This document shows, in pieces, positions 519-13,020 of a stretch of 15,609 nt of DNA. Every line of letters starts with the position of its first letter. The first letter of the stretch is position 1. The notes under the pieces were generated by a model that made no database searches, was not told the DNA's origin, and saw only the letters and a list, made by a program, of their open reading frames with translations. Both the position numbers and the translations under genes were made by a program. This DNA comes from an uncultured Erysipelotrichaceae bacterium (lineage in GTDB: Bacteria > Bacillota_I > Bacilli_A > Erysipelotrichales > Erysipelotrichaceae). The stretch is taken from NCBI GenBank assembly GCA_964401865.1, contig CAYNZZ010000021.1, positions 1 through 15,609 on the forward strand, read 5' to 3'.

Positions 519-679
519 GAATGCCTATCGGCTATCTCTGTCAAAGGATTTCTTACGCTGTCTTTGGGGCGGTTTCTGCTTATTGCGTTCCTGTATCTCA
601 CGCAGATGTTTTAACACGCTTTGCTTTTCGGGCGGTCTGTACTGTGCCTTAGCGGTGGCTGTCGGTTTCCTGCTGACTT

Positions 680-1213
680 GACGTTCCCATTCGGCTTTTC
701 AAGACATCCATGATCATAGTCGTCCAACATTGAAATGGCATCTGCATATGTTTCAACAACATTCAGTACCTCTTCTTCATCCAACTCTATAGTTGATGCG
801 ATAATCCTTGATTGGATCTTAACTGTTCGATCCAAAGCTTCTAGTCTTTTCTGATTAATAGCATAGCCTTTGAGCATATAGTCTTTCAGTATCGATGTTG
901 CCCATTTACGAAAGACAATACCATTTGGTGATTTAACACGATATCCAATTGCAAGTATCATATCAAGATTGTAAAACTGAACTTTATATTTTTTTCCGTC
1001 AGAACCAGTATGCTCAAAAAACGAGCATACTGAATTCTGTTCAAGTTCATTATCTTTATATATGTTTTGAATATGTCTAGTTATCGTTCTTCGATCTTTA
1101 CCGAATAGCTCAGCAATTTGTTTTTGAGTCAGCCATACAGTTTCTCTGTCTTCACTAACAGATACTTCCAATTCCAATTATCCATTTTTAAAGATTACAA
1201 TATCATTGTTCAT
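680..1213 (-). pseudogene. rhuM-family (virulence protein RhuM-like) gene, disrupted by an in-frame stop and 3'-truncated
   Basis: The translation DRETVWLTQKQIAELFGKDRRTITRHIQNIYKDNELEQNSVCSFFEHTGSDGKKYKVQFYNLDMILAIGYRVKSPNGIVFRKWATSILKDYMLKGY is the conserved RhuM N-terminal core. The real start is ATG at 1211-1213 (MNNDIVIFKNG, RBS GAGAGGGG). It is separated from the rest by an in-frame TAA at 1178-1180. RhuM-like sequence stops after ...DDYDHGCLEKPNGN at about nt 683, where a GC-rich unrelated sequence begins. The family is normally about 300+ aa. Confidence 0.7.
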
Positions 1214-1427
1214 GTAATCAACCCCTCTCATAATGTCATGAACGACAAGGTGGATAAAATAAATGTACCCATAGTACAACATTTCCAGCAATCCATTATA
1301 AGATGTTGCTTTCACTGTTTTTAGGTTGGACTTCACGAATGATTTATGAAATACTGTTATCAGTGAATGCAACATCATACATATCCTTAAAGATGTTATT
1401 TGCTCTTCAGGATATGTAACAATGCTT

Positions 1428-1577
1428 TAAAACCATTTTCTGTGAAAACATTTTTGAAAACATTTTTTGTAGACGTATGAGAAATAGGGGATATTTCATG
1501 GAATTGCACCTGTAAATAAGCGACAAAAAGGGTGTGTTTTAGACCATTTGGAAAATAATACAATCGAGTTTGAATAA
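1428..1577. repeat. R1 scaffold repeat, copy A (core only)
   Basis: Aligns with 4186-4328 and 7179-7321. A 34-nt stretch, gtgaaaacatttttgaaaacattttttgtagacg, is identical in all three copies. The blocks ...ggaattg.acctgtaaataag...caaaaaggg...gaccatttggaaaataatacaatcgagtttgaataa are also shared. Confidence 0.85.
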
Positions 1578-1634
1578 TTCAATAAACATCAAAAATCCTT
1601 TATATAAGGGCTTTTTTACATGCCAATTTTGGCC

Positions 1635-1654
1635 GTGAGTACAAAATGAGTACA
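1635..1654. repeat. left 20-bp inverted repeat bracketing the abiE module (2 x GAGTACA)
   Basis: The reverse complement of gtgagtacaaaatgagtaca is tgtactcattttgtactcac. This matches 3222-3241 (tgtactcaatatgtactcac) at 17 of 20 positions. Confidence 0.6.
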
Positions 1655-1694
1655 TAAATTATTGGATATGAATAATTAAATAAATTGAAGTCGA

Positions 1695-1723
1695 TTTACA
1701 TTCTCACTAATATAAAGTATAAT
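1695..1723 (+). promoter_or_regulatory. sigma-A type promoter of abiEi-abiEii
   Basis: TTTACA (1695-1700), a 17-nt spacer, then TATAAT (1718-1723), about 43 nt upstream of the abiEi ATG. Confidence 0.5.
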
Positions 1724-1765
1724 ATTAGCAAGAATGTAAAAGGCGGTGAGAGTGTGGAAGGAGTA

Positions 1766-2332
1766 ATGGATTCTAAAAAAATTGAGGTTTTGAATGTTAA
1801 AAAATTAAAGAATGTGAACGTATCGAGACAGTCTATTTATAATTTTATAAAAAGGAATTGTATGGAAAAAGTTGGCCCAGGTATTTATATTTCAAAAGAT
1901 GTGTTGGAAGATGAAGCTTATGTTTTGTCACAGCGTTGTCCAAAAGGAGTTATTTCTCATGATGATGCCTTATATTATTATGGTCTGGTTGATCGAGAAC
2001 CTTTTGTGCATTGTATTACAATTTATAGTGGATATAATCCTTCTGCTTTAACAAACTCAGGTTACAAGGTTTATACTGTAAAAAAGGAGCTTTTGGATCT
2101 AGGAAAGACTACAATCACAAATCAATTTGGTCATGAAATCCCAATGTATGATTTGGAAAGAACAATTTGTGATTTAGTGAGAAGTAGACGTAATTTCGAA
2201 ATTCAGGATTTTAATATGGCGATTAAAACTTATTTACAAAGAAGTGATAAAGATCTGAATTGTTTAATGGTGTATGCAAAAGCATTTCGAATTGAAAAGA
2301 TAATTAGACAATATATGGAGGTTTTATTGTAA
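1766..2332 (+). CDS. abiEi: type IV toxin-antitoxin system antitoxin AbiEi (wHTH)
   Basis: ORF 1685-2332 trimmed to ATG 1766, which has RBS GGAAGGAG 3 nt upstream. The N-terminal wHTH reads NVSRQSIYNFIKRNCMEKVGPGIY. The C-terminal part (...ERTICDLVR...) is typical of AbiEi. Its stop overlaps the start of the next gene (TAATG). Confidence 0.8.
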   Translation: MDSKKIEVLNVKKLKNVNVSRQSIYNFIKRNCMEKVGPGIYISKDVLEDEAYVLSQRCPKGVISHDDALYYYGLVDREPFVHCITIYSGYNPSALTNSGYKVYTVKKELLDLGKTTITNQFGHEIPMYDLERTICDLVRSRRNFEIQDFNMAIKTYLQRSDKDLNCLMVYAKAFRIEKIIRQYMEVLL

Positions 2333-3180
2333 TGTATCTAACTCCAGCACAAATAAAAGGTAGAATTAAAAATGTCGCCAAACAAAATGGATCGGATCCT
2401 ATAACTTTGTTACGTATTTATATGATGGAACGTTTTCTTGAAAGAATAACGTATTCTAAATATAAAGACGATTTCATTGTTAAGGGTGGAATCTTGGTTA
2501 CTTCTATGATTGGTATATCGATGCGATCGACTATAGATATTGATACAACAATACGTAATTTTGATTTAACCAAAGAAGAAACCACAAGGATTGTAAATGA
2601 AATTAAAGATATTTCTCTTGATGATCACATTGAATTTATCTTAAATGATGTATCTGATATCATGGACAATATGGAGTATCCAGGAATAAGAATTCATATG
2701 GATGCAAAATTAGAAAATTTAATAGTGCCAATCAAAATAGATATATCAACAGGTGATGTGATTACACCTAGAGAAATAAGATATGAATATCCGTTGTTGT
2801 TAGAAGACAAATCAATACAACTCTGGTCATATAATTTAGAGACAATACTTGCAGAAAAAATTCAAACAATTCTTTCTAGAGGATTGTTGAATACACGTAT
2901 GCGTGATTTTTATGATGTAACGACTTTATTTGATCGTTATAACGTTCAAATAAACTATAATGATTTATCATTGGCATTTGATAAAACATGTAGAAAAAGA
3001 GAGACACTTTCTTTATTGGAGCATTATGAAGAAATATTATGCTCAATAAGTGAAGATTCAACGTTGCAGAATTTATGGAAGAATTATTGTCGTAAATATA
3101 AATATGCTAGTCATATTGAGTTTTCTACAAATTTAGAAATAATAAAACAATTGATGAGTCAAATGTTAGAAATTGAGTGA
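2332..3180 (+). CDS. abiEii: AbiEii/AbiGii-family nucleotidyltransferase toxin
   Basis: 282 aa. It has the nucleotidyltransferase motif FIVKGGILVTSMIGISMRSTIDIDTT (G-G ... D-x-D). It also has ...NLETILAEKIQTILSRGLLNTRMRDFYD, characteristic of the AbiEii/DUF1814 family. It is coupled to abiEi by a 1-nt overlap. Confidence 0.85.
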   Translation: MYLTPAQIKGRIKNVAKQNGSDPITLLRIYMMERFLERITYSKYKDDFIVKGGILVTSMIGISMRSTIDIDTTIRNFDLTKEETTRIVNEIKDISLDDHIEFILNDVSDIMDNMEYPGIRIHMDAKLENLIVPIKIDISTGDVITPREIRYEYPLLLEDKSIQLWSYNLETILAEKIQTILSRGLLNTRMRDFYDVTTLFDRYNVQINYNDLSLAFDKTCRKRETLSLLEHYEEILCSISEDSTLQNLWKNYCRKYKYASHIEFSTNLEIIKQLMSQMLEIE

Positions 3181-3221
3181 AACAATATCTTAATTGTATG
3201 TATTGTTAGAATGAAATGGTT

Positions 3222-3241
3222 TGTACTCAATATGTACTCAC
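3222..3241. repeat. right 20-bp inverted repeat bracketing the abiE module
   Basis: tgtactcaatatgtactcac, the inverted partner of 1635-1654. A further direct-orientation GAGTACA (aaaatgagtacaaaat) follows at 3251-3266. Confidence 0.6.
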
Positions 3242-3378
3242 AGTGACTCCAAAATGAGTACAAAATATATGTAAAAGATTTGGAAAATAAAATAATACAG
3301 GAAGTAATTGTATAAATAACCATATAATGTATATGTTGTATGGATTTAAAAGTATACAAAATTGAGTTTGAGTAAAAT

Positions 3379-3400
3379 GCCGAGTAATCGGCGTTTTCTT
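3379..3400. terminator. hairpin terminator (GCCGA-gtaa-TCGGC plus T-rich tail), homologous to 4446-4470
   Basis: A 5-bp GC stem with a 4-nt loop, followed on the + strand by gttttctttt. It lies between the abiE operon and the parA remnant, so it could serve either strand. Confidence 0.5.
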
Positions 3401-3418
3401 TTACCCATTTTTCATCAT

Positions 3419-3555
3419 GTTTTTAGAGCCTAAGCAGTAATTGTAATCACTTTGTGGATTAAAGTCAGCAATTGATACTTCGTTTTCAGCATTGATGATC
3501 TTGAAAAACTCTACCTGTTTTGGTTTGTCGCTGTAATTAGTTTGTATTTAGACAT
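3419..3555 (-). pseudogene. parA remnant (P-loop deleted, frameshifted, truncated)
   Basis: ATG at 3553-3555 gives MSKYKLITATNQNR*. Compare the intact-looking start MSKCKVIAVANQKGGVGKTT at 6325. A second frame gives INAENEVSIADFNPQSDYNYCLGSKN, which matches RNGNEVLIVYFDPQGDLTACLGWKN of the 5921-6325 copy. Confidence 0.6.
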
Positions 3556-3647
3556 AAAAAACTCCTTTCCCATAACCACCAGCTAGTAGTGGATATGTAA
3601 AGGAGTTAAAATTATTCTTGCTTAATAGATAAATTGGAATTTATCTA
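3550..3647. repeat. R2 repeat copy 1: parA leader with SD-sequestering hairpin and a perfect 9-4-9 palindrome
   Basis: 3563-3606 is 44/44 identical to 6335-6378 (tcctttcccataaccaccagctagtagtggatatgtaaaggagt). The palindrome tagataaat-tgga-atttatcta at 3626-3647 is identical to 6397-6418. Confidence 0.85.
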
Positions 3648-3667
3648 ACTGTTTTATGAATTAAAAT

Positions 3668-3964
3668 CTACTGATTGTAATGATACAACACTTCTTTTCC
3701 ATGCCTTTCAGCATACTCAATTTCTTTTTTCACAGATGTTCCAATATAACCATCCATATTTACAACATATATTCCATCACTTAAATCTATTTTTCTGTAA
3801 TGAGCATCTGCAAGTTTTAAAAGTTCATCTTCAGTTGGAACAATATTATCTTCACAATAAACACATTGTAATATATTATATCCTTTGCTTATTTCAAGGT
3901 CATAAGCAATTTTTTTCATATCTTCGGCAAATTTCATGCTTCCACAAATTGTATAAGTTTTCAC
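3668..3964 (-). CDS. small nucleoside 2-deoxyribosyltransferase-like (NDT/DUF4406-type Rossmann-like) protein, 98 aa
   Basis: GTG start at 3962-3964 with RBS GAGGTGA. The pattern ICGSMKF ... H-x3-I-x2-SDGIYVVNMDGYIGTSVKKEIEYAERHGKEV matches the N-terminal phosphate-binding loop and the C-terminal G-x-S-x3-E-x2-YA motif of the NDT-like fold. The functional assignment is by motif only. Confidence 0.55.
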   Translation of the reverse strand: MKTYTICGSMKFAEDMKKIAYDLEISKGYNILQCVYCEDNIVPTEDELLKLADAHYRKIDLSDGIYVVNMDGYIGTSVKKEIEYAERHGKEVLYHYNQ

Positions 3965-3977
3965 CCAATCACCTCAT

Positions 3978-4403
3978 CAAATCCCGATTTGTATAAATCT
4001 ACTTATTTAAAATTACATGGATTATAACATTTATTTATAAATCTGAATAGACGGTATAAATTAGTTAAACCATAACGGATTCTATTTGATTCAGTTGTAA
4101 TAATATAATTAATCAATAGAATAGAGTGGAGATTTAATTGAGAACTAGATTGATTTTCATGACATGCAACAATCACACCAAAACCATCTCCCGTGAAAAC
4201 ATTTTTGAAAACATTTTTTGTAGACGCATAGGAAAACGGCCTGCTTTGATGGAATTGTACCTGTAAATAAGGGCCAAAAAGGGCACATTTTCGACCATTT
4301 GGAGAATAATACAATTGAGTTTGAATAAATATAGGCTTTAATGGGGTATAAATTTAAAAATATATGAAACATACCCCTTTAACTTGAAAAAATATAACAC
4401 CTC
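3978..4403. repeat. R1 scaffold repeat, copy B (full length: 5'UTR box, promoter, core, AT-rich tail)
   Basis: Colinear with 6971-7399. Shared blocks are: caaatcccgattt; ataacatttattta..ctgaatag; ggattcta; taatataattaat; tcatgaca.gcaa; the 37-nt identical gtgaaaacatttttgaaaacattttttgtagacgcat; ...gagtttgaataaatataggctttaa.gggg.tataa...cccctttaacttgaaaaaa.ataacacctc. Confidence 0.9.
4021..4047 (-). promoter_or_regulatory. extended -10 promoter inside R1-B driving the 98-aa cargo gene
   Basis: Minus strand: TTCAGA (4042-4047), 15 nt, then TGtTATAAT (-10 at 4021-4026). The same architecture sits at the same place in R1-C. Confidence 0.5.
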
Positions 4404-4445
4404 AATTAGAATGTTCCAGGAACAATCGAATTCGAGTAAAATGAT

Positions 4446-4470
4446 AAAACGCCGAGAAATCGGCGTTTTT
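4446..4470. terminator. bidirectional rho-independent terminator after the 475-aa gene
   Basis: aaaacGCCGAgaaaTCGGCgttttt, with A-run and T-run flanks, 8 nt beyond the stop of the minus-strand CDS ending at 4478. Confidence 0.75.
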
Positions 4471-4477
4471 AACTGGT

Positions 4478-5905
4478 TTATAAGTCGTTTTTATCGTCAA
4501 CTAATATGAATACTGAATATGGAGATTTAGGATTTCCTTCTCTTTTAATAATATTTTTTTCAATAAGTGGGTTTATTACCCTAGATAAAAATGTTGATCT
4601 ACTTTTATAAGGAGTAACACCTTGTAATTCGTTTATTTGTTTTGGACCGCTTTTAAGCGAATGTATTATCACTTCTTCATAATTTTTTAAGTCTGTAATA
4701 TTATCGACGTCTAATTCTTTCACCTCTTCGTTGTACAAAAGATCATAAAGCTTTAAGGATAGAAAACCTGGATATGCAGAGACAACTGGTTGTTTGTTTT
4801 CAGGTGCTTTCTTATAACACTCTACGATTGTCTGAAATCCTGTGCCACCACGTTCCATTAGATTTGCAACATCCAGACATGCTGCTATTATTTTGTTTCT
4901 TCTAATGGAAGGAATGGTGCCAACAGGATATTCTTCGTATGGCTTTGGAAGCAACCATGACCCAGGGGATACAACTTCAATTCTATCATCATAAATATCT
5001 ACATCAATCTGCGTTCCCATGATTGAATAATCACGATGTGCTATTGCATTAACCAGTATTTCTCTTATTGCTTCTTTAGGATAGGAACGTACTTCTTCTC
5101 TTCCTCCATTTGCTGCCTTTTTCCATCCGGATTTTGTGTTTCTTTCAATAAAATTGAGTGTTGAAGAAAAAACATCTAATAAAGGTCCTTTATATCTACC
5201 AGTATCTAAAACAGTGCCCACTTTGTTAATTCCTTTCCAAAGTCTGCAACATATTAAAGAATCATCGTTAGCATAGTCATCTTTAAACATTAGTAGCCCG
5301 GTTGATGAATATCCGTCCTTTGATACAATTTGTTCATTTTGTAATTCTTTTAAGCTCGGGATGCTGTGGTCGGTTCGATAAATGCTACATGTCGAAAGAT
5401 ATTTGCTCCAGTCTGATTCTTTATATAAGATTTCACTTATTGAATTATCGACACCATATTTACGCTTAGATAGTGAGATAATGTCTTCTGGAGTGGCAGG
5501 AGTTGTATTTCCATCGCCTTTAATATAAACAGTTTCGTTAAAATCTCCATCTCTATATCTCACAACAGAGTCGGAAGAATATATTTTTACTGCCAAAACA
5601 AATTTTTCAGCATCGTTATCAACGCTCCTCATAGAATATGATATTTTTGCATGTGGAAAAATGTGTCTATCATTAATAATTGCAATAAGATTTTTGGTCT
5701 TATCAATCTCTTCAATCGATAGTCCAAAAACATCTCGATTATTGGAAACACCAACAAAGATTATTCCACCATCACCATTAGCATATCCAACAATAGTTTT
5801 TGCCCATTTCAATGGGTTATCGGATGATAAAATGCTTTTGAGTTCATAGTGCAAATCTTCTGTTATGACATCTAGATATAGTTCGTTAATTTTCAAATTA
5901 ATCAC
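4478..5905 (-). CDS. COG2865-type ATP-binding regulator-like protein: N-terminal AlbA_2 (Schlafen-core-like) domain, HATPase_c_4-like domain and C-terminal wHTH
   Basis: N-terminus: EDLHYELKS...WAKTIVGYANGDGGIIFVGVSNNRDVFGL (AlbA_2 / divergent AAA signature). Middle: EAIREILVNAIAHRDYSIMGTQIDVDIYDDRIEVVSPG (HATPase_c_4). C-terminus: a wHTH-like segment, IIHSLKSGPKQINELQGV...INPLIEKNIIKREG. The track start is GTG 5905, but GAGGTG (5903-5908) is itself the likely RBS, so TTG 5894-5896 (MKINELYL...) is the more probable start. Confidence 0.8.
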   Translation of the reverse strand: MINLKINELYLDVITEDLHYELKSILSSDNPLKWAKTIVGYANGDGGIIFVGVSNNRDVFGLSIEEIDKTKNLIAIINDRHIFPHAKISYSMRSVDNDAEKFVLAVKIYSSDSVVRYRDGDFNETVYIKGDGNTTPATPEDIISLSKRKYGVDNSISEILYKESDWSKYLSTCSIYRTDHSIPSLKELQNEQIVSKDGYSSTGLLMFKDDYANDDSLICCRLWKGINKVGTVLDTGRYKGPLLDVFSSTLNFIERNTKSGWKKAANGGREEVRSYPKEAIREILVNAIAHRDYSIMGTQIDVDIYDDRIEVVSPGSWLLPKPYEEYPVGTIPSIRRNKIIAACLDVANLMERGGTGFQTIVECYKKAPENKQPVVSAYPGFLSLKLYDLLYNEEVKELDVDNITDLKNYEEVIIHSLKSGPKQINELQGVTPYKSRSTFLSRVINPLIEKNIIKREGNPKSPYSVFILVDDKNDL

Positions 5906-5914
5906 CTCGCAATA

Positions 5915-5943
5915 ATTATATCAACATTTCGCAAACATTTCGA
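5915..5943 (-). promoter_or_regulatory. promoter of the 475-aa gene, overlapped by iterons
   Basis: Minus strand: TATAAT at 5915-5920, with a weak -35 TCGAAA at 5938-5943 (17-nt spacer). Confidence 0.45.
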
Positions 5944-6325
5944 TAACATTTCGCAAACATTTCGAATTACGAATAGTTAAAGTAATGCTTGTTGGATATA
6001 GTCCAAAAACAATACGCATTTCAAAATTTGTCAGTTCAATGTTTGCTGGAATTACATCGGCATCCTCTTCATGTTTTAAGATTAGAGATGCATAGTTGAT
6101 ATCCTTATCGTTGATGTAATCATCAAGCATGGTTGAAACAGTATTATCCAATGAGTCATTGTTCTTCCAACCAAGACATGCAGTAAGATCTCCCTGAGGG
6201 TCAAAGTATACAATCAATACTTCATTGCCGTTTCTTGCTAGGCCAATTGCAACATTCTCGGTTGTAGTGGTCTTGCCAACGCCGCCTTTCTGGTTGGCAA
6301 CTGCAATTACTTTGCATTTGGACAT
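5921..6325 (-). pseudogene. parA: parA-family partition ATPase, truncated after about codon 105
   Basis: MSKCKVIAVANQKGGVGKTTTTENVAIGLARNGNEVLIVYFDPQGDLTACLG... carries the deviant Walker A KGGVGKT of ParA/Soj. Family-like sequence ends near ...VIPANIELTNFEMRIV (about nt 6010). The ORF then runs into the iteron array. Full-length ParA is about 250 aa, and Walker B and later motifs are missing. Confidence 0.75.
5923..5964. repeat. four direct 9-mers AACATTTCG (minus strand CGAAATGTT) at exact 11-bp spacing; iteron/operator or centromere-like array
   Basis: Copies at 5923-5931, 5934-5942, 5945-5953 and 5956-5964, read directly from tcAACATTTCGcaAACATTTCGatAACATTTCGcaAACATTTCGaatt. Confidence 0.85.
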
Positions 6326-6418
6326 AATAAAAAATCCTTTCCCATAACCACCAGCTAGTAGTGGATATGTAAAGGAGTATTTTGTATCTTGTTAGATAGA
6401 TAAATTGGAATTTATCTA
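6320..6418. repeat. R2 repeat copy 2 (parA leader hairpin plus 9-4-9 palindrome)
   Basis: See 3550-3647. There is a 44-nt identical block at 6335-6378 and an identical palindrome at 6397-6418, which lies 6 nt downstream of the GNAT stop codon. Confidence 0.85.
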
Positions 6419-6424
6419 TGTTGC

Positions 6425-6946
6425 CTATAACATAATAATGTATTCTTCTTTATCTGAATTTTCACTCTTTATTATACGATTTAGTTTTCCTCCACAAGCT
6501 ATTATAGTTTTTCTGGAAGGCATATTATCAGCAGAACACACAACTTTCACTTCCGAAAGATTATGCATTTTAAATCTTTTTAAAGCTTCTTTTAGCATTT
6601 CAGTTGCATATCCTTTCATACGTTCTTCCGGAACAACACTATAACCGACATGCCCGCTATCCTTATAAAACTCTGTCATATCATAACGGATATTAATGAT
6701 ACCAACAATTTTATTTTCCTCATTCATCGCAAATAGCGTATCAGATACTCCAAATTTAGGATTAGCAGTACTGAAACTTGCATTATTTATAATTATCTCT
6801 AACCATTCAAGATAAGAATATTTATCTACATCTAATTTGTAACTACCGAAAATTGTTTTTTCTCCATTATTATAAAATTTCATTTTAAATTCTTGAGCAT
6901 CTTTTTCCATCTCAATAGTTGGAAATACTAAATTTACTCTTTTCAT
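6425..6946 (-). CDS. GNAT-family N-acetyltransferase (173 aa)
   Basis: The motif region IVGIINIRYDMTEFYKDSGHVGYSVVPEERMKGYATEMLKEALKRFKMHNLSEVKVVCSADNMPSRKTIIACGGKL is the GNAT acetyl-CoA-binding core. The track ORF (to 7009) was trimmed to ATG 6944-6946, which has AGGAGG 8 nt upstream. The longer version would begin inside the conserved R1 promoter/UTR. Confidence 0.8.
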   Translation of the reverse strand: MKRVNLVFPTIEMEKDAQEFKMKFYNNGEKTIFGSYKLDVDKYSYLEWLEIIINNASFSTANPKFGVSDTLFAMNEENKIVGIINIRYDMTEFYKDSGHVGYSVVPEERMKGYATEMLKEALKRFKMHNLSEVKVVCSADNMPSRKTIIACGGKLNRIIKSENSDKEEYIIML

Positions 6947-6970
6947 TTCTGCTTTTCCTCCTGAACTCAC

Positions 6971-7399
6971 CAAATCCCGATTTTTATAAATCAATTCTTT
7001 TAAAATCACCTAGAGTATAACATTTATTTAAAGCTCTGAATAGTTGAAAAAACCTGATAAATTCAAACTGGATTCTACTTGAAACGAATATGAAAATATA
7101 ATTAATTGGTAGATGAAAGCAAAGATCTATCTAAGAAGGAATCCTTTCTTCATGACACGCAATAATTACATCAAAATCATCATCTGTGAAAACATTTTTG
7201 AAAACATTTTTTGTAGACGCATGAGAAAAAGCCCTGTTTTGGTGGAGTTGTACCTTTAAATAAGTGTCAAAAAGGGCACTTTTTAGACCATTTGGAAAAT
7301 AATACAATCGAGTTTGAATAAAATATAGGCTTTAACGGGGGGTATAATTTTAAAAATATATAAAAAATGCCCCTTTAACTTGAAAAAAAATAACACCTC
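6971..7399. repeat. R1 scaffold repeat, copy C (full length)
   Basis: Colinear with 3978-4403 (see that entry). The tandem 12-mer GAAAACATTTTT is at 7188-7211. Confidence 0.9.
7014..7040 (-). promoter_or_regulatory. extended -10 promoter inside R1-C driving the GNAT cargo gene
   Basis: Minus strand: TTCAGA (7035-7040), 15 nt, then TGtTATACT (-10 at 7014-7019). It is positionally homologous to 4021-4047. Confidence 0.5.
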
Positions 7400-7430
7400 T
7401 TTACTGAAATAAAAGTAAAGAGATTTTTTT
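7397..7430. terminator. bidirectional terminator at the outer edge of R1-C
   Basis: Perfect 9-bp stem CTCTTTACT-gaaataaa-AGTAAAGAG with a T7 run after it and an A-rich run before it. A second small hairpin, GTAGGgtgaCCTAC, follows at 7437-7450. Confidence 0.65.
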
Positions 7431-7634: not shown

Positions 7635-7949
7635 ATGCAAAAAGCAATAAAAGAAATCATAGAGTTTAATAGAGAAAGAGAGTGGGATCAATTTCATTCG
7701 CCCGAAAATTTAGCAAAATCTATAGTCATAGAAGCAGGAGAACTCTTGGAATGTTTTCAATGGAATAATAACTATGATAAAGAAAAAGTATGTGAGGAAT
7801 TAGCCGATGTAGTGAATTATTGCGTTGTAATGGCAGATCGTTTACAAGTGGATTTAGAAACAATAGTGTTAGATAAATTAGAGAAAAATCGTCAAAAATA
7901 TCCAGTCGAAAAAGCGAAAGGAAATTCAAAGAAGTATAATGAATTATGA
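7635..7949 (+). CDS. MazG-like all-alpha NTP pyrophosphohydrolase, RS21-C6/DCTPP1/YpjD type (104 aa)
   Basis: RBS GGAGG 7 nt upstream. The sequence REREWDQFHSPENLAKSIVIEAGELLECFQW...EELADVVNYCVVMADRLQVDLETIVLDKLEKNRQKYP contains the E-x2-E and E-x2-D metal-binding motifs and the family-typical F-H-x-P-x-N-L and K-N-x3-YP boxes. Confidence 0.85.
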   Translation: MQKAIKEIIEFNREREWDQFHSPENLAKSIVIEAGELLECFQWNNNYDKEKVCEELADVVNYCVVMADRLQVDLETIVLDKLEKNRQKYPVEKAKGNSKKYNEL

Positions 7950-9811
7950 TTGTATACCAAGAAACAAAAAAGAAATTTTTAACAGATGTAAGACTGGATT
8001 TAATTGAGGATAAAATAGAACAAAAGGTACTCGAACGGTTGCATAAAAAGACTGCTCATAATGAATTTTTATCTTGGATGAATTCGATGCAGTATATGTA
8101 TAAAGTCTTGGAAGCTAAAAGTATTCCAGATGATAGTGTAATTGCAATCGAGTATAGGATACCTAATTCAAATAAGCGGGTGGATTTCATCATTAGTGGT
8201 GAAAATGAATTAGGACAAGAAAGTGCAGTTATTATAGAACTGAAGCAATGGCAAAAATTAGAAAAAGTGGACTCCAAAGAAGCGGTTGTCAAAACTCATT
8301 TACAAGGAAGAATGGTGGAGACAACGCATCCTTCATATCAGGCTTGGTCTTACGTAAGTATGATAGAAGACTATAATGAAGATGTTAGAAAATATAAAAT
8401 CAATTTGCAACCATGTGCTTATTTACACAATTATAGGCTTCAAGAGCATGATGATTTAACAGATTTATGTTATGAATATTATATTGATAAGGCACCAGTA
8501 TTCACCAGAGGAGATACAGATAAATTAGCGAAGTTTATCTCGAAATATGTGAAAAAAGGGAATCCTGATGTGCTTTATCATATTGAACAAGGAAGAATTG
8601 TTCCAAGCAAATCTTTACAAGACAGTTTATCATCCATGTTAAAAGGTAATAGAGAATTTACATTGATTGATGAACAAAAAGTAGTGTTTGAAAGGGCATT
8701 AGAAATTGTAAGAAATCAAAACAAGAAAAAAGTATATATAATTCATGGAGGTCCGGGTACTGGGAAAACGGTTTTAGCAATAAATATGCTTGTTGCGATA
8801 TTGAACATGAATCAAAATGTGATGTATGTAACAAAGAATTCTGCGCCTCGAGAAGTGTACCGGAAAAAATTGACAGAAGGAAAATATCGAAAAGCATATA
8901 TCGATAATTTATTTAAAGGATCAGGAGCTTTTACAGAAGCCATATCAGATGATTTTGATTGTTTAATTGTCGATGAGGCTCATCGGTTAAACGAAAAATC
9001 TGGAATGTTTCAAAATTTAGGGGAAAACCAAGTAAAAGAAATTATAAATGCAGCGAAAACAAGTATATTTTTCGTTGATGATTTTCAAATCGTAACTACT
9101 AAAGATATTGGAAGTACAAATGAAATAAAAAAATGGTGTCTTTTCTTTGATGCTCAAGTATATGAAGATACACTTATATCACAATTTAGATGCAATGGTA
9201 GTGACTCTTATCTTTCATGGATAGATAATGTCTTGGAAATCAATCCAGAAGCAACAGATGACTTTGATTGTGATTATGATATTCGCATTTGCGATACTCC
9301 AGACGAAGTAAGACAATTAATTTTAGAAAAAAATAAAACTAATAATAAATCGAGAATGGTTGCTGGTTATTGTTGGAAATGGATTAAAGAAGGGAAAAAT
9401 GATAGTCATGTTCATGACATACAAATTGGAGATTTTGGAATGTCATGGAATCTTGGGTCTTCTTCAACATGGGCTATCGATTCTGAATCTGTAAATGAAA
9501 TAGGTTGTATTCATACCTGTCAAGGATTAGAGTTTGATTATGTTGGAGTTATTATCGGCGATGATATGCGTTATGACAATGGCATTATTACTGATTTTAT
9601 GAAAAGGGCTAGTACTGATCAATCTATTAAAGGGTTAAAAGGTTTATATAAAAAAGATAAAGATAGAGCTAAAAAAATTGCAGATCAAATTATAAAAAAC
9701 ACATATAGAACATTATTAACAAGAGGGCAAAAAGGATGTTATATCTATTGCGTTGATGGTAGTTTAAAATCGTATTTGAAAGAAAGATTAACAAAATCTA
9801 TTCAAAATTGA
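7946..9811 (+). CDS. DUF2075-family (Schlafen-type) P-loop helicase with an N-terminal PD-(D/E)xK-like nuclease motif (621 aa)
   Basis: The start overlaps the MazG stop (ATGA at 7946-7949). Nuclease-like motif: VDFII (aa 79-83) ... IIELK (aa 96-100). Walker A: GGPGTGKT (aa 268-275, nt 8747-8770). Walker B: CLIVDEAHR. C-terminal boxes: IHTCQGLEFDYVGVIIG and YRTLLTRGQKGCYIY, typical of DUF2075. Confidence 0.85.
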   Translation: MIVYQETKKKFLTDVRLDLIEDKIEQKVLERLHKKTAHNEFLSWMNSMQYMYKVLEAKSIPDDSVIAIEYRIPNSNKRVDFIISGENELGQESAVIIELKQWQKLEKVDSKEAVVKTHLQGRMVETTHPSYQAWSYVSMIEDYNEDVRKYKINLQPCAYLHNYRLQEHDDLTDLCYEYYIDKAPVFTRGDTDKLAKFISKYVKKGNPDVLYHIEQGRIVPSKSLQDSLSSMLKGNREFTLIDEQKVVFERALEIVRNQNKKKVYIIHGGPGTGKTVLAINMLVAILNMNQNVMYVTKNSAPREVYRKKLTEGKYRKAYIDNLFKGSGAFTEAISDDFDCLIVDEAHRLNEKSGMFQNLGENQVKEIINAAKTSIFFVDDFQIVTTKDIGSTNEIKKWCLFFDAQVYEDTLISQFRCNGSDSYLSWIDNVLEINPEATDDFDCDYDIRICDTPDEVRQLILEKNKTNNKSRMVAGYCWKWIKEGKNDSHVHDIQIGDFGMSWNLGSSSTWAIDSESVNEIGCIHTCQGLEFDYVGVIIGDDMRYDNGIITDFMKRASTDQSIKGLKGLYKKDKDRAKKIADQIIKNTYRTLLTRGQKGCYIYCVDGSLKSYLKERLTKSIQN

Positions 9812-12010: not shown

Positions 12011-12087
12011 TGGCGGTCCGGACGGGGATCGAACCCGCGATCTCCTCCGTGACAGGGAGGCATGTTAAACCACTACACCACCGGACC
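12011..12087 (-). tRNA. tRNA-Asp (GTC)
   Basis: The reverse complement ggtccggtggtgtagtggtttaacatgcctccCTGTCACggaggagatcgcgggttcgatccccgtccggaccgcca folds as a cloverleaf. The anticodon loop is CT-GTC-AC and the CCA end is encoded. Confidence 0.9.
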
Positions 12088-12088
12088 A

Positions 12089-12162
12089 TGGAGCAGATGA
12101 AGGGAATCGAACCCTCGTGTCGACCTTGGCAAGGTCGCGTTCTACCATTGAACTACATCTGC
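12089..12162 (-). tRNA. tRNA-Gly (GCC)
   Basis: Reverse complement: gcagatgtagttcaatggtagaacgcgaccTTGCCAAggtcgacacgagggttcgattcccttcatctgctcca. Anticodon stem is cgacc/ggtcg, the loop is TT-GCC-AA, and CCA is encoded. Confidence 0.9.
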
Positions 12163-12170
12163 ATTTATTA

Positions 12171-12261
12171 TGGCGAAGAAGGAGGGATTTGAACCCTCGC
12201 GCCGGTTTCCCGACCTATGCCCTTAGCAGGGGCACCTCTTCGGCCTCTTGAGTACTTCTTC
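12171..12261 (-). tRNA. tRNA-Ser (GCT), long variable arm
   Basis: Reverse complement: gaagaagtactcaagaggccgaagaggtgcccCTGCTAAgggcataggtcgggaaaccggcgcgagggttcaaatccctccttcttcgcca. Anticodon loop is CT-GCT-AA, with a class II variable arm. Confidence 0.85.
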
Positions 12262-12353
12262 ACTCTACGCTTGCCGTTTAGCGCTTTTTAATATTAGCAT
12301 AGTGATTTTATTTTTGCAAGTATTTATGATATTATTTTTTTGAGGTGAGTATT

Positions 12354-12845
12354 ATGGCTATTGCAGAATTTATGAAAGTTAGTGCTGAACAGTTTGAAAA
12401 AGATTGTTTAAAGGTAAATGGTAATTATCAAAAAGAATGGTATGAAGACATCATTTTGCCGAAAAGAGCGACCAAAGGTTCTGCTGGCTATGATTTTCAT
12501 TGTCCCTATGATGTAGTTATCAAGCCTCAGGAAATGGTTAAAATCCCATTAGGTATCAGAGTGAAGATGGAAGAAGGCTATGTGTTAAATTTGTATCCTA
12601 GATCTTCTATGGGTTTCAAATATCAGATGACTTTAGCTAATACGACCGGAATCATTGATAGCGACTATTTTAATGCTGATAATGAAGGACACATTCTTGC
12701 TGCTATCGTTAATAGAGGAAATAAAGATATCATTTTAAACAAAGGAGATCGCTTTGTTCAAGGAATCTTTTTAGCTTACTATCTTGCAAAAGAAGATGAA
12801 GACTTTAAACTTAGAACTGGTGGCTATGGAAGTAGTGGTAAATAG
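12354..12845 (+). CDS. dut: dUTP diphosphatase
   Basis: KGSAGYDF, YPRSSMG, GIIDSDYFNADNEG and the C-terminal RTGGYGSSGK are the five dUTPase motifs. The track ORF was trimmed to ATG 12354, which has GAGGTGA 5 nt upstream. Confidence 0.9.
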   Translation: MAIAEFMKVSAEQFEKDCLKVNGNYQKEWYEDIILPKRATKGSAGYDFHCPYDVVIKPQEMVKIPLGIRVKMEEGYVLNLYPRSSMGFKYQMTLANTTGIIDSDYFNADNEGHILAAIVNRGNKDIILNKGDRFVQGIFLAYYLAKEDEDFKLRTGGYGSSGK

Positions 12846-12850
12846 CTTTT

Positions 12851-12925
12851 GTGTCTATAGCTCAATGGATAGAGTATTTGATTCCGATTCAAAAGATGTA
12901 GGTTCGATTCCTACTAGGCACGCCA
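12851..12925 (+). tRNA. tRNA-Arg (CCG)
   Basis: gtgtctatagctcaatggatagagtatttgaTTCCGATtcaaaagatgtaggttcgattcctactaggcacgcca. Acceptor stem is gtgtcta/taggcac (one G-U pair), the anticodon loop is TT-CCG-AT, and CCA is encoded. Confidence 0.85.
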
Positions 12926-12929
12926 TATT

Positions 12930-13020
12930 GCTGACTTGTGTGAGCGGTTGAAACAACCGTCTTGGAAAGGCGGCGTACGTCAAAAGCGTACCACAGGTTC
13001 GAATCCTGTAGTCAGCGCCA
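12930..13020 (+). tRNA. tRNA-Ser (GGA), long variable arm
   Basis: gctgacttgtgtgagcggttgaaacaaccgtcTTGGAAAggcggcgtacgtcaaaagcgtaccacaggttcgaatcctgtagtcagcgcca. Acceptor stem is gctgact/agtcagc, the anticodon loop is TT-GGA-AA, and the variable arm is gtacg...cgtac. Confidence 0.85.

Follow-up and report, generated by a model that had tools for sequence, protein, structure and literature searches.

One-gene slots between repeated flanks in an Erysipelotrichaceae bacterium: putative sites of cassette exchange among gut Firmicutes

Classical integrons are almost absent from the Firmicutes, in which IntegronFinder 2.0 recovered a single complete integron (PMC9024848), and how these bacteria trade single adaptive genes has been unclear so far. 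Apart from integrons, the closest described counterparts are the dif modules of Acinetobacter and the rAID-1 clusters. In the dif modules (pdif sites, XerC/XerD), small modules, often of toxin–antitoxin (TA) or resistance genes, are bounded by short, inversely oriented recombinase cores that alternate along an array; the replicon backbone counts as one module, and single modules, which cannot simply excise, are thought to move via cointegrates (PMC13141974). The rAID-1 elements of Bacteroidales (recombinase-associated acquired interbacterial defence) are defined by a 5′ recombinase with close homologues restricted to that order, a XerD-like protein more than 44% identical to BF9343_RS08045. 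Reiterated partial copies of one element end, with decayed backbone genes, are found in arrays of integrative and conjugative elements (ICEs) and cis-mobilizable elements (CIMEs) and in staphylococcal cassette chromosome (SCC) composites. Here we describe a 15,609-nt stretch (the window; contig CAYNZZ010000021.1 of assembly GCA_964401865.1) from an uncultured Erysipelotrichaceae bacterium, in which three copies of a non-coding leader (R1) and two copies of a hairpin-bearing module (R2) frame slots that hold unrelated single genes, together with the comparison loci or stretches read alongside it (L002–L170).

We consider it fairly probable, for the cassette slot and its site-specific exchange taken as a whole, that the window preserves promoter-bearing heads of a mobile element with one-gene slots, and that the cassettes in these slots are traded by site-specific exchange at short cores. 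A broader reading, whose chances appear evenly balanced, is that gut Firmicutes (Clostridia and Erysipelotrichia) share an undescribed cassette system with alternately oriented AAA-N6-TTT cores and a dedicated Xer-like recombinase plus RelB/ParE; it would comprise arrays on mobilizable or conjugative elements, single insertions behind R1-like promoters, and a ~49-nt site with a TTTGAA/KTY junction (the slash marks the junction throughout). What is said below of recombination, promoters and enzymes comes from sequence and computation. A search of full-text literature, from a library without most subscription journals, yielded no description of an integron-like or cassette system in Clostridia, Bacillota or Lachnospiraceae. 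Such a negative speaks only weakly for novelty, and that the system is truly undescribed is about a coin toss.

The locus shares reiterated partial copies and decayed backbone genes with ICE/CIME arrays and SCC composites, but neither an integrase nor an att duplication bounds its units. It resembles rAID-1 in the immunity genes (Imm33 and SUKH-1) found in slots of this kind, in its gut setting and in the Xer-like recombinase. Here, however, the hosts are Firmicutes, the recombinase accompanies RelB/ParE within the array, the sites have another sequence, and single cassettes are found inserted in mobile-element heads as well. Likenesses to dif modules and integrons are taken up once the sites have been described.

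Gene slots and their short cores

The preliminary description of the window had reported three copies of R1, two of R2 and two of each of two short boxes, all of which a repeat finder recovered. With the R1 core of R1-B (4156–4329) as the reference copy, the cores of R1-C (7149–7322) and R1-A (1405–1578) are 87% and 75% identical. R1-B (3973–4403) and R1-C (6966–7399) are homologous end to end over ~430 nt, with segments of 71%, 87% and 92% identity, and the R2 hairpins at 3557–3606 and 6329–6378 are 98% identical over 50 nt. The box AAATCGGGATTTG occurs twice on the minus strand (3978–3990, 6971–6983) against 0.04 copies expected by chance, and TAGATAAAT-N4-ATTTATCTA twice (3626–3647, 6397–6418) against 0.01; the palindrome regions at 3616–3647 and 6387–6418 are 91% identical. 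When units B and C are aligned, homology ends a few bases past the box and returns at the palindrome, so that unrelated genes occupy the same slot between conserved flanks, as the preliminary description had proposed. The slots are made up as follows:

6971–6983, minus strand: putative upstream recombination core of slot C, AAAT-CGGG-ATTT-G; junction GGA/TTT placed between 6975 and 6974 by analogy with slot B
6405–6974, minus strand: GNAT cassette with its own ribosome-binding site (RBS), AGGAGG; open reading frame (ORF) 6425–6946, 173 aa from ATG; boundaries placed from the cores
6397–6418, minus strand: putative downstream core of slot C, perfect palindrome TAGATAAA-TTCCAA-TTTATCTA; single-stranded DNA (ssDNA) fold z = −4.1
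3978–3990, minus strand: putative upstream recombination core of slot B, AAAT-CGGG-ATTT-G; junction between 3982 and 3981
3634–3981, minus strand: 98-aa cassette with its own RBS, GAGGTG; ORF 3668–3964; 3′ tail ending in TAGATAAAT
3626–3647, minus strand: putative downstream core of slot B, palindrome TAGATAAA-TTCCAA-TTTATCTA; DNA fold z = −3.7

Both palindromes are perfect 8-6-8 sites of 22 bp. Their central TTCCAA is the reverse complement of TTGGAA, and the downstream core is therefore inverted relative to the upstream one; the slot would thus run from AAA-TCGGGA-TTT at the end of R1 to an inverted AAA-TTCCAA-TTT at the start of R2. Cataloguing the genes in this position, as had been suggested, gave eight different cargos in eight homologous slots, including Imm33 (L019), a 140-aa protein without known family (L020), a metallophosphoesterase (L022), a cytidine-deaminase-like gene plus a SUKH-1 gene (L023), and the GNAT and 98-aa protein of the window. 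A homologue of the GNAT (42%) stands directly upstream of an array site in L132.

The ends of a cassette can be read most directly from the cargo of slot B. The 98-aa protein is WP_256137153.1 (‘MULTISPECIES: hypothetical protein [Clostridia]’), is present on at least 1000 contigs, and is listed in exact form in 1643 blocks of the assembly collection, out of which ten contexts were read (L003–L012). These are unrelated Clostridia contexts without R1 or R2, and nucleotide identity to the window is 98.9–100% over 3630/31–3982/92 only. The neighbours differ: MatE, RelB/ParE with a recombinase, a run of small co-directional genes, MobA-TnpV, or a group II intron. On the gene strand, all copies start ...GAA/TTTGATGAGGTGATTGG-GTG and end TAG-N20-TAGATAAAT-TTGAATTT, followed by the RBS of the next gene, a unit of ~350 bp. 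A similar case is the slot cargo of L020, which matches a cassette of the metagenomic array L084 at 98.9% identity over 469 nt; identity begins at GAA/TTTGACGGGG (junction GAA/TTTG) and ends at AAATTCCAG/, beyond which L020 continues with R2 and L084 with a hairpin site. Because cargos ~99% identical recur in contexts without R1 or R2, and because identity ends inside the boxes, the short boxes appear to be the exchange points, with R1 and R2 as backbone. The earlier proposal of cassette exchange between conserved flanks is thus borne out as to the variable slot content, but not as to the long R1 and R2 flanks as the points of exchange. For the same reason the ‘UTR box’, previously taken for a 5′ untranslated region (UTR) signal, is better read as a recombination core and upstream junction, given that cargo identity ends inside it.

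The cores also coincide with other insertions and breaks. Two strain variants (L015/L016, positions 800–2226) are 99.8% identical to window 6392–7212 and diverge directly past the palindrome, their overlap reading TTCCTA where the window has TTCCAA; the site is thus a live breakpoint among near-identical strains. Past the palindrome, these variants carry a higher-GC element that ends in a convergent 432-aa tyrosine integrase, and the palindrome may be the attachment site of that element too. In L012 (8106–9985), a group II intron with its reverse transcriptase is inserted exactly inside the core (AAATCGGAATT^T) upstream of the 98-aa cassette, much as class C introns target attC in integrons.

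Sequence searches of the 98-aa protein in Pfam, NCBIfam and PDB gave no significant match. Its predicted structure (pLDDT 91) best matches nucleoside 2′-deoxyribosyltransferases (NDTs) and DNPH1 at a TM score of ~0.74, which supports the label ‘NDT-like’ given earlier at the level of the fold only; the protein is ~50 residues shorter than these enzymes. Its cassette often travels with a dCMP/cytidine deaminase cassette (L003, L007–L009).

Array sites and a candidate recombinase

The arrays were sought with the 3′ half of their site, AGWYTGAAAGCA-N8-TTTGAAKTY, which matched more than 120 metagenome stretches (a lower bound), chiefly from human and animal gut; a scan of viral contigs gave no match. 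The 5′ arm, which lies outside the search pattern, is present at 104 of the 115 sites with enough flank, and these 104 were used for flank counts. The consensus of ~49 nt reads AAAyTTTCAGtCTT-N7-AGAyTGAAAGCA-N8-TTTGAAKTY, the 5′ arm AAMTTTCAGKCTT being an imperfect inverted copy of the 3′ arm AAGATTTGAAKTT. The median distance from the preceding stop triplet to the site is 4.5 nt, and 74 of 104 sites are followed by a Shine–Dalgarno (SD) sequence and start codon at a median distance of 15.5 nt. Flanks are diverse (72 distinct upstream, 78 distinct downstream), successive sites are spaced 0.2–3.4 kb apart, and nearly all ORFs are co-directional with the site. Cargo includes GNATs, alpha/beta hydrolases, NUDIX proteins, a hexapeptide acetyltransferase, HlyIII, MerR-TipAS, CPBP proteases and AbiE pairs. 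A sequence common to several arrays (TCACTTGAGGTATTTTwAGGGATTTAATAAC...; L011 from 11078, L033, L116, L124, L131) stands after the last site and may be a conserved end of the carrier element.

Within these arrays the junction is resolved to ~3 nt. The N8 spacer is constant in all nine groups that have a common upstream gene and differing continuations, and the last three bases (TTT, GTT or TTC) follow the downstream gene in all eight informative groups. As N8 goes with the upstream gene and KTY with the downstream gene, crossover is placed at TTTGAA/KTY. A second class of junction lies at the 5′ arm (...TTYCAG/), both at R2 and at the 5′ end of the recombinase module described below. Moreover, a second type of site, AAATTCCAGTTT-N9-13-AAATCGGAATTT, comprises exactly the two half-sites seen where R1 ends and where R2 starts. 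All cores fit AAA-N6-TTT, with N6 being TTTGAA, TCGGRA or, inverted, TTCCAG/TTCCAA, and each observed junction coincides with one edge of N6 or the other, as would be expected of a tyrosine recombinase with a 6-bp overlap. The cores are, we presume, unlike the dif site of Bacillus subtilis. A serine recombinase (TnpX/TndX) cutting at GA was considered and rejected: all cores hold GA, but the junctions lie elsewhere, and TnpV is rarely nearby.

Gene counts were taken over 120 array loci, many of them short contigs. A 323-aa tyrosine recombinase (8316–9284 in L006), the most recurrent non-cargo gene of the arrays, is present at 85% identity or more in 8 of these loci (MobA in 3), and RelB/ParE follow it wherever the downstream sequence is readable. 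It passes the XerA-type model NF040815 (‘site-specific tyrosine recombinase/integron integrase’) with 231.7 bits against a cutoff of 220, and fails the IntI models TIGR02249 (68 bits, cutoff 265) and PRK15417 (35.6 bits, cutoff 435). Its nearest solved relatives are XerC-like and XerA proteins, and its 90%-identity clusters have 4318 and 6052 members, mainly on short contigs. The recombinase–RelB–ParE triad (L006 8316–9964; L145–L152; L059, L067, L100, L124) is 93–99% identical between loci, sometimes broken, and is always joined upstream at ...TTYCAG/TAATACGC and downstream at ...TTTATTTGAA/TTT. It is thus nested between a 5′ arm and a 3′ arm, the same topological position that the R2...R1 backbone segment has in the window. 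From this co-occurrence, the 323-aa protein might tentatively be proposed as the enzyme of cassette exchange.

A 70%-identical relative (L153–L160, 8800–12200) lies between two hsdS genes, or among three in one locus, of a type I restriction–modification system whose locus also holds AbiJ, Fic, NERD and Abi_2, a phase-variable specificity shufflon. The recombinase family therefore includes proven kinds of site-specific shufflers.

Taken together, these features can be arranged in a provisional model. On its minus strand, the window would contain decayed head units, two and a half in tandem, from an integrated element of plasmid- or ICE-like kind that is typical of Erysipelotrichaceae, a complete unit consisting of a terminator, R1, a one-gene slot, R2 and then parA-ssb-lar-parB. 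The slot genes would be promoterless cassettes with their own RBS, transcribed from the R1 promoter and drawn from a pool common to gut Firmicutes, which in Clostridia would be stored as co-directional arrays with a ~49-nt site after every gene. Cassettes would be swapped by site-specific recombination at the cores. Because the two slot cores are inversely oriented, exchange would proceed via cointegrate formation and resolution or via double crossover rather than by simple excision, like the route proposed for Acinetobacter dif modules. Since the window has no recombinase gene, any exchange there must be catalysed in trans, a role that the 323-aa Xer-like recombinase found with RelB/ParE inside arrays would fill.

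The likeness to dif modules lies in the inverse orientation of the slot overlaps, TCGGGA upstream and TTCCAA (the reverse complement of TTGGAA) downstream, and in the R2...R1 segment, which stands between a 5′ arm and a 3′ arm as the recombinase–RelB–ParE triad does. Unlike dif modules, however, the present system occurs in another phylum; its cores are AAA-N6-TTT with short arms rather than the 11-6-11 dif-like layout, most of its sites have an extra hairpin or third repeat, and its cassettes are single, co-directional ORFs, apparently promoterless and read from an upstream promoter. Its recombinase is only a candidate, a dedicated Xer-like gene sometimes embedded in the array.

Integrons offer a different set of parallels: a platform of promoter plus first site (the predicted R1 extended −10 and AAATCGGRATTT, a layout that L003 and L004 share); cassettes of 0.2–3.4 kb, most with a single ORF, that are co-directional and predicted to be promoterless; an imperfect palindrome that ends the cassette, with the junction a few bases from its 3′ end (compare G/TTRRRY); a similar cargo spectrum of acetyltransferases, hydrolases, immunity proteins and TA pairs; and group II introns that target the sites. 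But there is no IntI-type integrase here (the window has no recombinase ORF), and the sites are not attC (R″/L″/L′/R′ with GTTRRRY) but AAAyTTTCAG...TTTGAA/KTY or AAATTCCAGTTT-N-AAATCGGAATTT. A second junction class also lies at the 5′ arm, and the candidate recombinase sits inside the arrays in the same orientation as the cassettes. The preliminary description likewise did not recognise a standard integron, in agreement with the absence of an integrase from the window and of any Rfam family (attC included, if the library holds it) at R1, R2 or the sites at E ≤ 1; there and in nine related loci, the latter at gathering score, Rfam returned tRNAs and group II introns only. The locus is not a classical integron; it works like a cassette platform.

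The repeated leader, the element backbone and neighbouring genes

In the sense of the minus strand, the order runs from a terminator through R1-C with its core, the GNAT cassette, the inverted core, R2 and parA′ to a Schlafen-like gene; a terminator, R1-B with its core, the 98-aa cassette, the inverted core, R2, parA″ and a further terminator follow, and the order ends with an AbiE pair on the other strand, R1-A and a rhuM pseudogene. Besides the slots listed above, these features are:

6966–7399, minus strand: R1-C, cargo-type non-coding leader; core 7149–7345, ~200 nt variable, extended −10, 3′ core box
7014–7022, minus strand: predicted extended −10 of R1-C, TGTTATACT, at a position conserved among R1 copies
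6329–6378, minus strand: R2-C hairpin, ACUCCUUU...AAAGGA followed by a U-run; RNA fold z = −3.8
5921–6325, minus strand: parA′, N-terminal 134 aa only; stops at a TGA in frame with the next ORF
4478–5905, minus strand: Schlafen-like AlbA_2 + HATPase_c_4 gene, backbone between the two slots
4446–4469, minus strand: predicted intrinsic terminator before R1-B in the cargo sense; GCCGA..TCGGC hairpin, scored as a terminator
3973–4403, minus strand: R1-B, cargo-type leader; core 4156–4350
4021–4029, minus strand: predicted extended −10 of R1-B, TGTTATAAT, at a position conserved among R1 copies
3557–3606, minus strand: R2-B hairpin, terminator-like and predicted to sequester an RBS; RNA fold z = −4.9
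3401–3555, minus strand: parA″, decayed start of parA, ~50 codons; internal stops and a 30-nt deletion
3379–3392, minus strand: predicted terminator closing unit B, 3′ of the parA remnant; GCCGA..TCGGC hairpin, scored as a terminator
1272–1595, minus strand: R1-A, rhuM-type leader; core 1405–1578, without core box
1273–1281, minus strand: −10-like TGTTGTACT of R1-A
611–1378, minus strand: rhuM pseudogene; in-frame TAA at 1178, C-terminal half truncated when compared with the 316-aa L017 and L020 copies

R1 relatives were sought with an exact 26-mer of the core in one genome per species. All eight stretches found belong to Erysipelotrichaceae (Floccifex porci, Holdemanella porci, Traorella and metagenome-assembled genomes, MAGs), and most hold at least two copies, often two to four per locus, ~1.8 kb apart. 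R1 and R2 thus recur in other genomes, where the preliminary description had proposed to look for them, and neither repeats confined to this locus, nor flanks that are parts of coding genes, nor an invariant slot was found. The R1 copies fall into types by what they precede: rhuM (window A, L017, L020, the last two with intact 316-aa copies), Schlafen-like genes (L021, L023, L024), or a variable gene with R2 and parA (window B, window C, L019, L020, L022, L023); the box AAATCGGRATTTG terminates only the last of these. R1-A, previously placed at 1428–1577, is present but extends to ~1272–1595, where it aligns with rhuM-type copies from other genomes, and it lacks the box. The copies are positionally orthologous across genera and 71–92% identical, which argues for old paralogues rather than recent accretion.

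An alignment of 16 copies gives R1 a strongly conserved core of ~190 nt, ~200 nt in two versions and an extended −10, TGTTATAMT. The core begins directly 3′ of a terminator hairpin that varies from copy to copy. The two terminators proposed earlier both score as such on the minus strand, and the repeats that contain them (3373–3397, 4445–4469) are 92% identical, but the one at 4446–4469 precedes R1-B and only that at 3379–3392 closes unit B; R1-C is preceded by a different hairpin (7395–7424). Terminator-like sites are frequent in the region (7 observed against 1.8 expected), and promoter-like sites are not enriched (40 against 38.3). The scaffold promoter of the preliminary description survives as the extended −10, kept in all 13 copies that reach this position; it consists of that element only, and the generic sigma-70 scan missed it. 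The extended −10 would be the promoter driving the slot gene.

Several other identities for R1 were rejected. Single-base indels in the core of the 16 copies, with stops placed differently in every frame, rule out a protein-coding remnant and show the core to be non-coding, in line with the earlier view that the flanks are not ordinary genes; the plus-strand frame ...DHLENNTIEFE*, a candidate gene remnant, has stops and indels that vary between copies. A structured RNA is opposed by a consensus energy of −4.8 kcal/mol, by 0 of 18 predicted pairs with compensatory changes, and by the lack of an Rfam match. As ssDNA, both strands of R1-B and R1-C fold no better than shuffled sequence (z = +0.12, +0.15, −0.19 and −0.67), contrary to an Frpo-like single-strand promoter. 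The core could instead be a protein-binding regulatory region. All 23 contigs that carry the flanking mazG gene (L161–L170) stop 340–445 nt upstream of it, at R1-C, so R1 breaks short-read assemblies and masks strain variation here.

R1 and R2 appear from these comparisons to be the backbone of an Erysipelotrichaceae element. As RNA, R2 forms a stable hairpin (z −2.8 to −4.9) with a U-run after it, and the SD sequence of parA sits within its 3′ arm; R2 should therefore terminate or attenuate R1 transcripts and mask parA translation. The intact version of the element that the preliminary description had asked after exists in L020 and L022, where R2 is followed by an operon for ParA (272–281 aa), SSB, a Lar-like restriction-alleviation protein and a ParB_N protein; such genes would be expected at the head, or in the leading region, of an element of conjugative or plasmid-like type. 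The two parA copies of the window are both broken, and neither SSB nor ParB follows them; the locus is thus a decayed, reiterated remnant, and its two and a half units agree with the tandem accretion of decayed copies that had been envisaged. On sequence grounds, the window can be described as a two-cassette arrangement with a 2.4-kb backbone ‘spacer module’ or, equally, as two tandem head units with different cassettes. The truncated parA′ also occurs in Floccifex porci (L017 109–513). At window 5906–5965, its end lies in two tandem copies of a 22-nt repeat (AACATTTCGCAAACATTTCGAw), and the 615-aa ParA–Schlafen ‘fusion’ in the protein listing of L013 was dismissed as a gene-calling artefact, L013 having the same in-frame TGA as the window. 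Relatives of the Schlafen-like gene with R1 upstream are those of L021, L023 and L024. When units B and C were compared with plasmid and phage collections by BLASTN, nothing relevant matched, and the window ORFs include no recombinase or integrase and no relaxase.

From left to right, the window genes are a CPBP-protease fragment, a Cys-rich KTR gene, the rhuM pseudogene, AbiEi/AbiEii (opposite strand), the 98-aa gene, the Schlafen-like AlbA_2/HATPase_c_4 gene, the ParA N-terminal fragment, the GNAT, a MazG-like gene, DUF2075, an LtaS-like sulfatase and five tRNAs, with housekeeping genes (dUTPase, aminopeptidase) among and after the tRNAs. AbiEi/AbiEii (1685–3180, plus strand) have their own strong promoter-like site (1695–1723, 11 of 12 matches) and are flanked by 28-nt direct repeats (GTGAGTACAAAATGAGTACA..., 82% identical) at 1635–1662 and 3243–3270, an arrangement that suggests a separately inserted module; AbiE pairs also stand as cassettes beside array sites (L046, L038). 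Divergent from R1-C, the genes for a MazG-like pyrophosphatase and for a Schlafen-group-3/DUF2075 helicase (7635–9811, plus strand) show translational coupling. With the AbiE pair, rhuM and the AlbA_2 gene, they give the region the look of a defence island, which a tRNA cluster (12011–13020) adjoins.

Alternatives and meaning

Several observations weigh against slots that exchange cassettes by site-specific recombination. The GNAT cassette has no second context, its exact protein occurring only at the same locus or in close variants. Neither an excised circle nor an empty slot nor a strain series turned up, close-strain contigs breaking at R1. The window is a 15.6-kb MAG contig, of which independent assemblies (L013, L014, L002), 99.96–100% identical to the matching window segments, confirm no more than unit C with its flanks. 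A recombinase is missing from the window and from most array loci, many of these being short contigs, and the 70%-identical relative of the candidate is an hsdS-shufflon recombinase, which leaves co-occurrence as its link to cassettes. Finally, the array hairpin has modest energies (z about −1.2) and shows G.T wobbles on the sense strand only, which could mean a role at the RNA level.

The repeats themselves could be explained more plainly, if one parA element had been duplicated or accreted in tandem and its cargo then replaced by RecA-dependent recombination between the long R1 and R2 flanks, the boxes being incidental. Two and a half units with parA decayed in both agree with such a history, as does the presence of R1 and R2 around every slot in Erysipelotrichaceae; the 98% identity of R2 between units, against 71–92% for R1, suggests gene conversion. 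We nevertheless regard this explanation as unlikely: the 98-aa and 140-aa cargos are ~99% identical in contexts without R1 or R2, with identity that ends inside 12-nt cores, the array junction is exact to ~3 nt, and duplication would cover spread among related elements but not the entry of cassettes into a slot. The wobbles just mentioned could instead point to inter-gene elements that are primarily RNA signals (an intercistronic hairpin, or a processing or translation-initiation context), with shuffling as a by-product of microhomology or illegitimate recombination. Pairing through G.U-type wobbles is indeed confined to the sense strand (63 TA and 12 GT sites at pair −10/2; 52 GT and 24 GC sites at pair −11/3), the element invariably stands after a stop codon and before the RBS that follows, and most loci have no recombinase. 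But junctions fall at fixed positions rather than spreading over the repeat, palindromic AAA-N6-TTT cores are typical of recombinase sites, the hairpin-less minimal-site cassette of the 98-aa protein moves equally well, and the cores are also insertion points for an integrase-bearing element and a group II intron, all of which makes a primarily RNA-level function quite improbable.

Hairpin, spacer and junction on one strand, with wobble-tolerant pairing, would also fit oriT-like nick sites (a hairpin with cleavage ~17 nt 3′), at which cassettes would be moved single-stranded by the HUH relaxase MobA/MobL of mobilizable array carriers; the arrays of L004, L005 and L010 begin right after MobA_MobL-TnpV. 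We rate this very low, however, given MobA in 3 of 120 array loci against the recombinase in 8, the second class of junction, located at the 5′ arm, the 22-bp palindromes in the window, which are perfect and better suit a recombinase dimer, and the lack of a relaxase in the window. A last account would dispense with a cassette mechanism altogether and take R1 as an Frpo/ssi-type single-strand promoter of a conjugative leading region, reiterated before early genes. Reiterated ~430-nt non-coding modules before different small genes, near SSB, Lar-like and ParB-like genes, are indeed typical leading-region content, but whole R1 has ssDNA z values of −0.7 to +0.15, with no long imperfect hairpin and no covariation, and the cassette boundaries are left unexplained; this account is barely credible.

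Site-specific exchange of cassettes at short cores is thus the reading that we favor. The data define a precise exchange site, with a cassette architecture, a junction of ~3 nt and a candidate recombinase, and they link the arrays of Clostridia with the mobile-element heads of Erysipelotrichaceae, one cassette being ~99% identical across classes. If the broader reading is true, the system would do in an integron-lacking phylum what integrons and dif modules do elsewhere. Its cargo of acetyltransferases (GNAT, hexapeptide), hydrolases, MerR/TipAS regulators, Imm33, SUKH and CPBP proteins and nucleotide-modifying enzymes means that resistance and inter-bacterial defence genes could travel by this route in the human gut. 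Mining of metagenomes for cassette content would also become possible with the site motif, as it is with attC for integrons.

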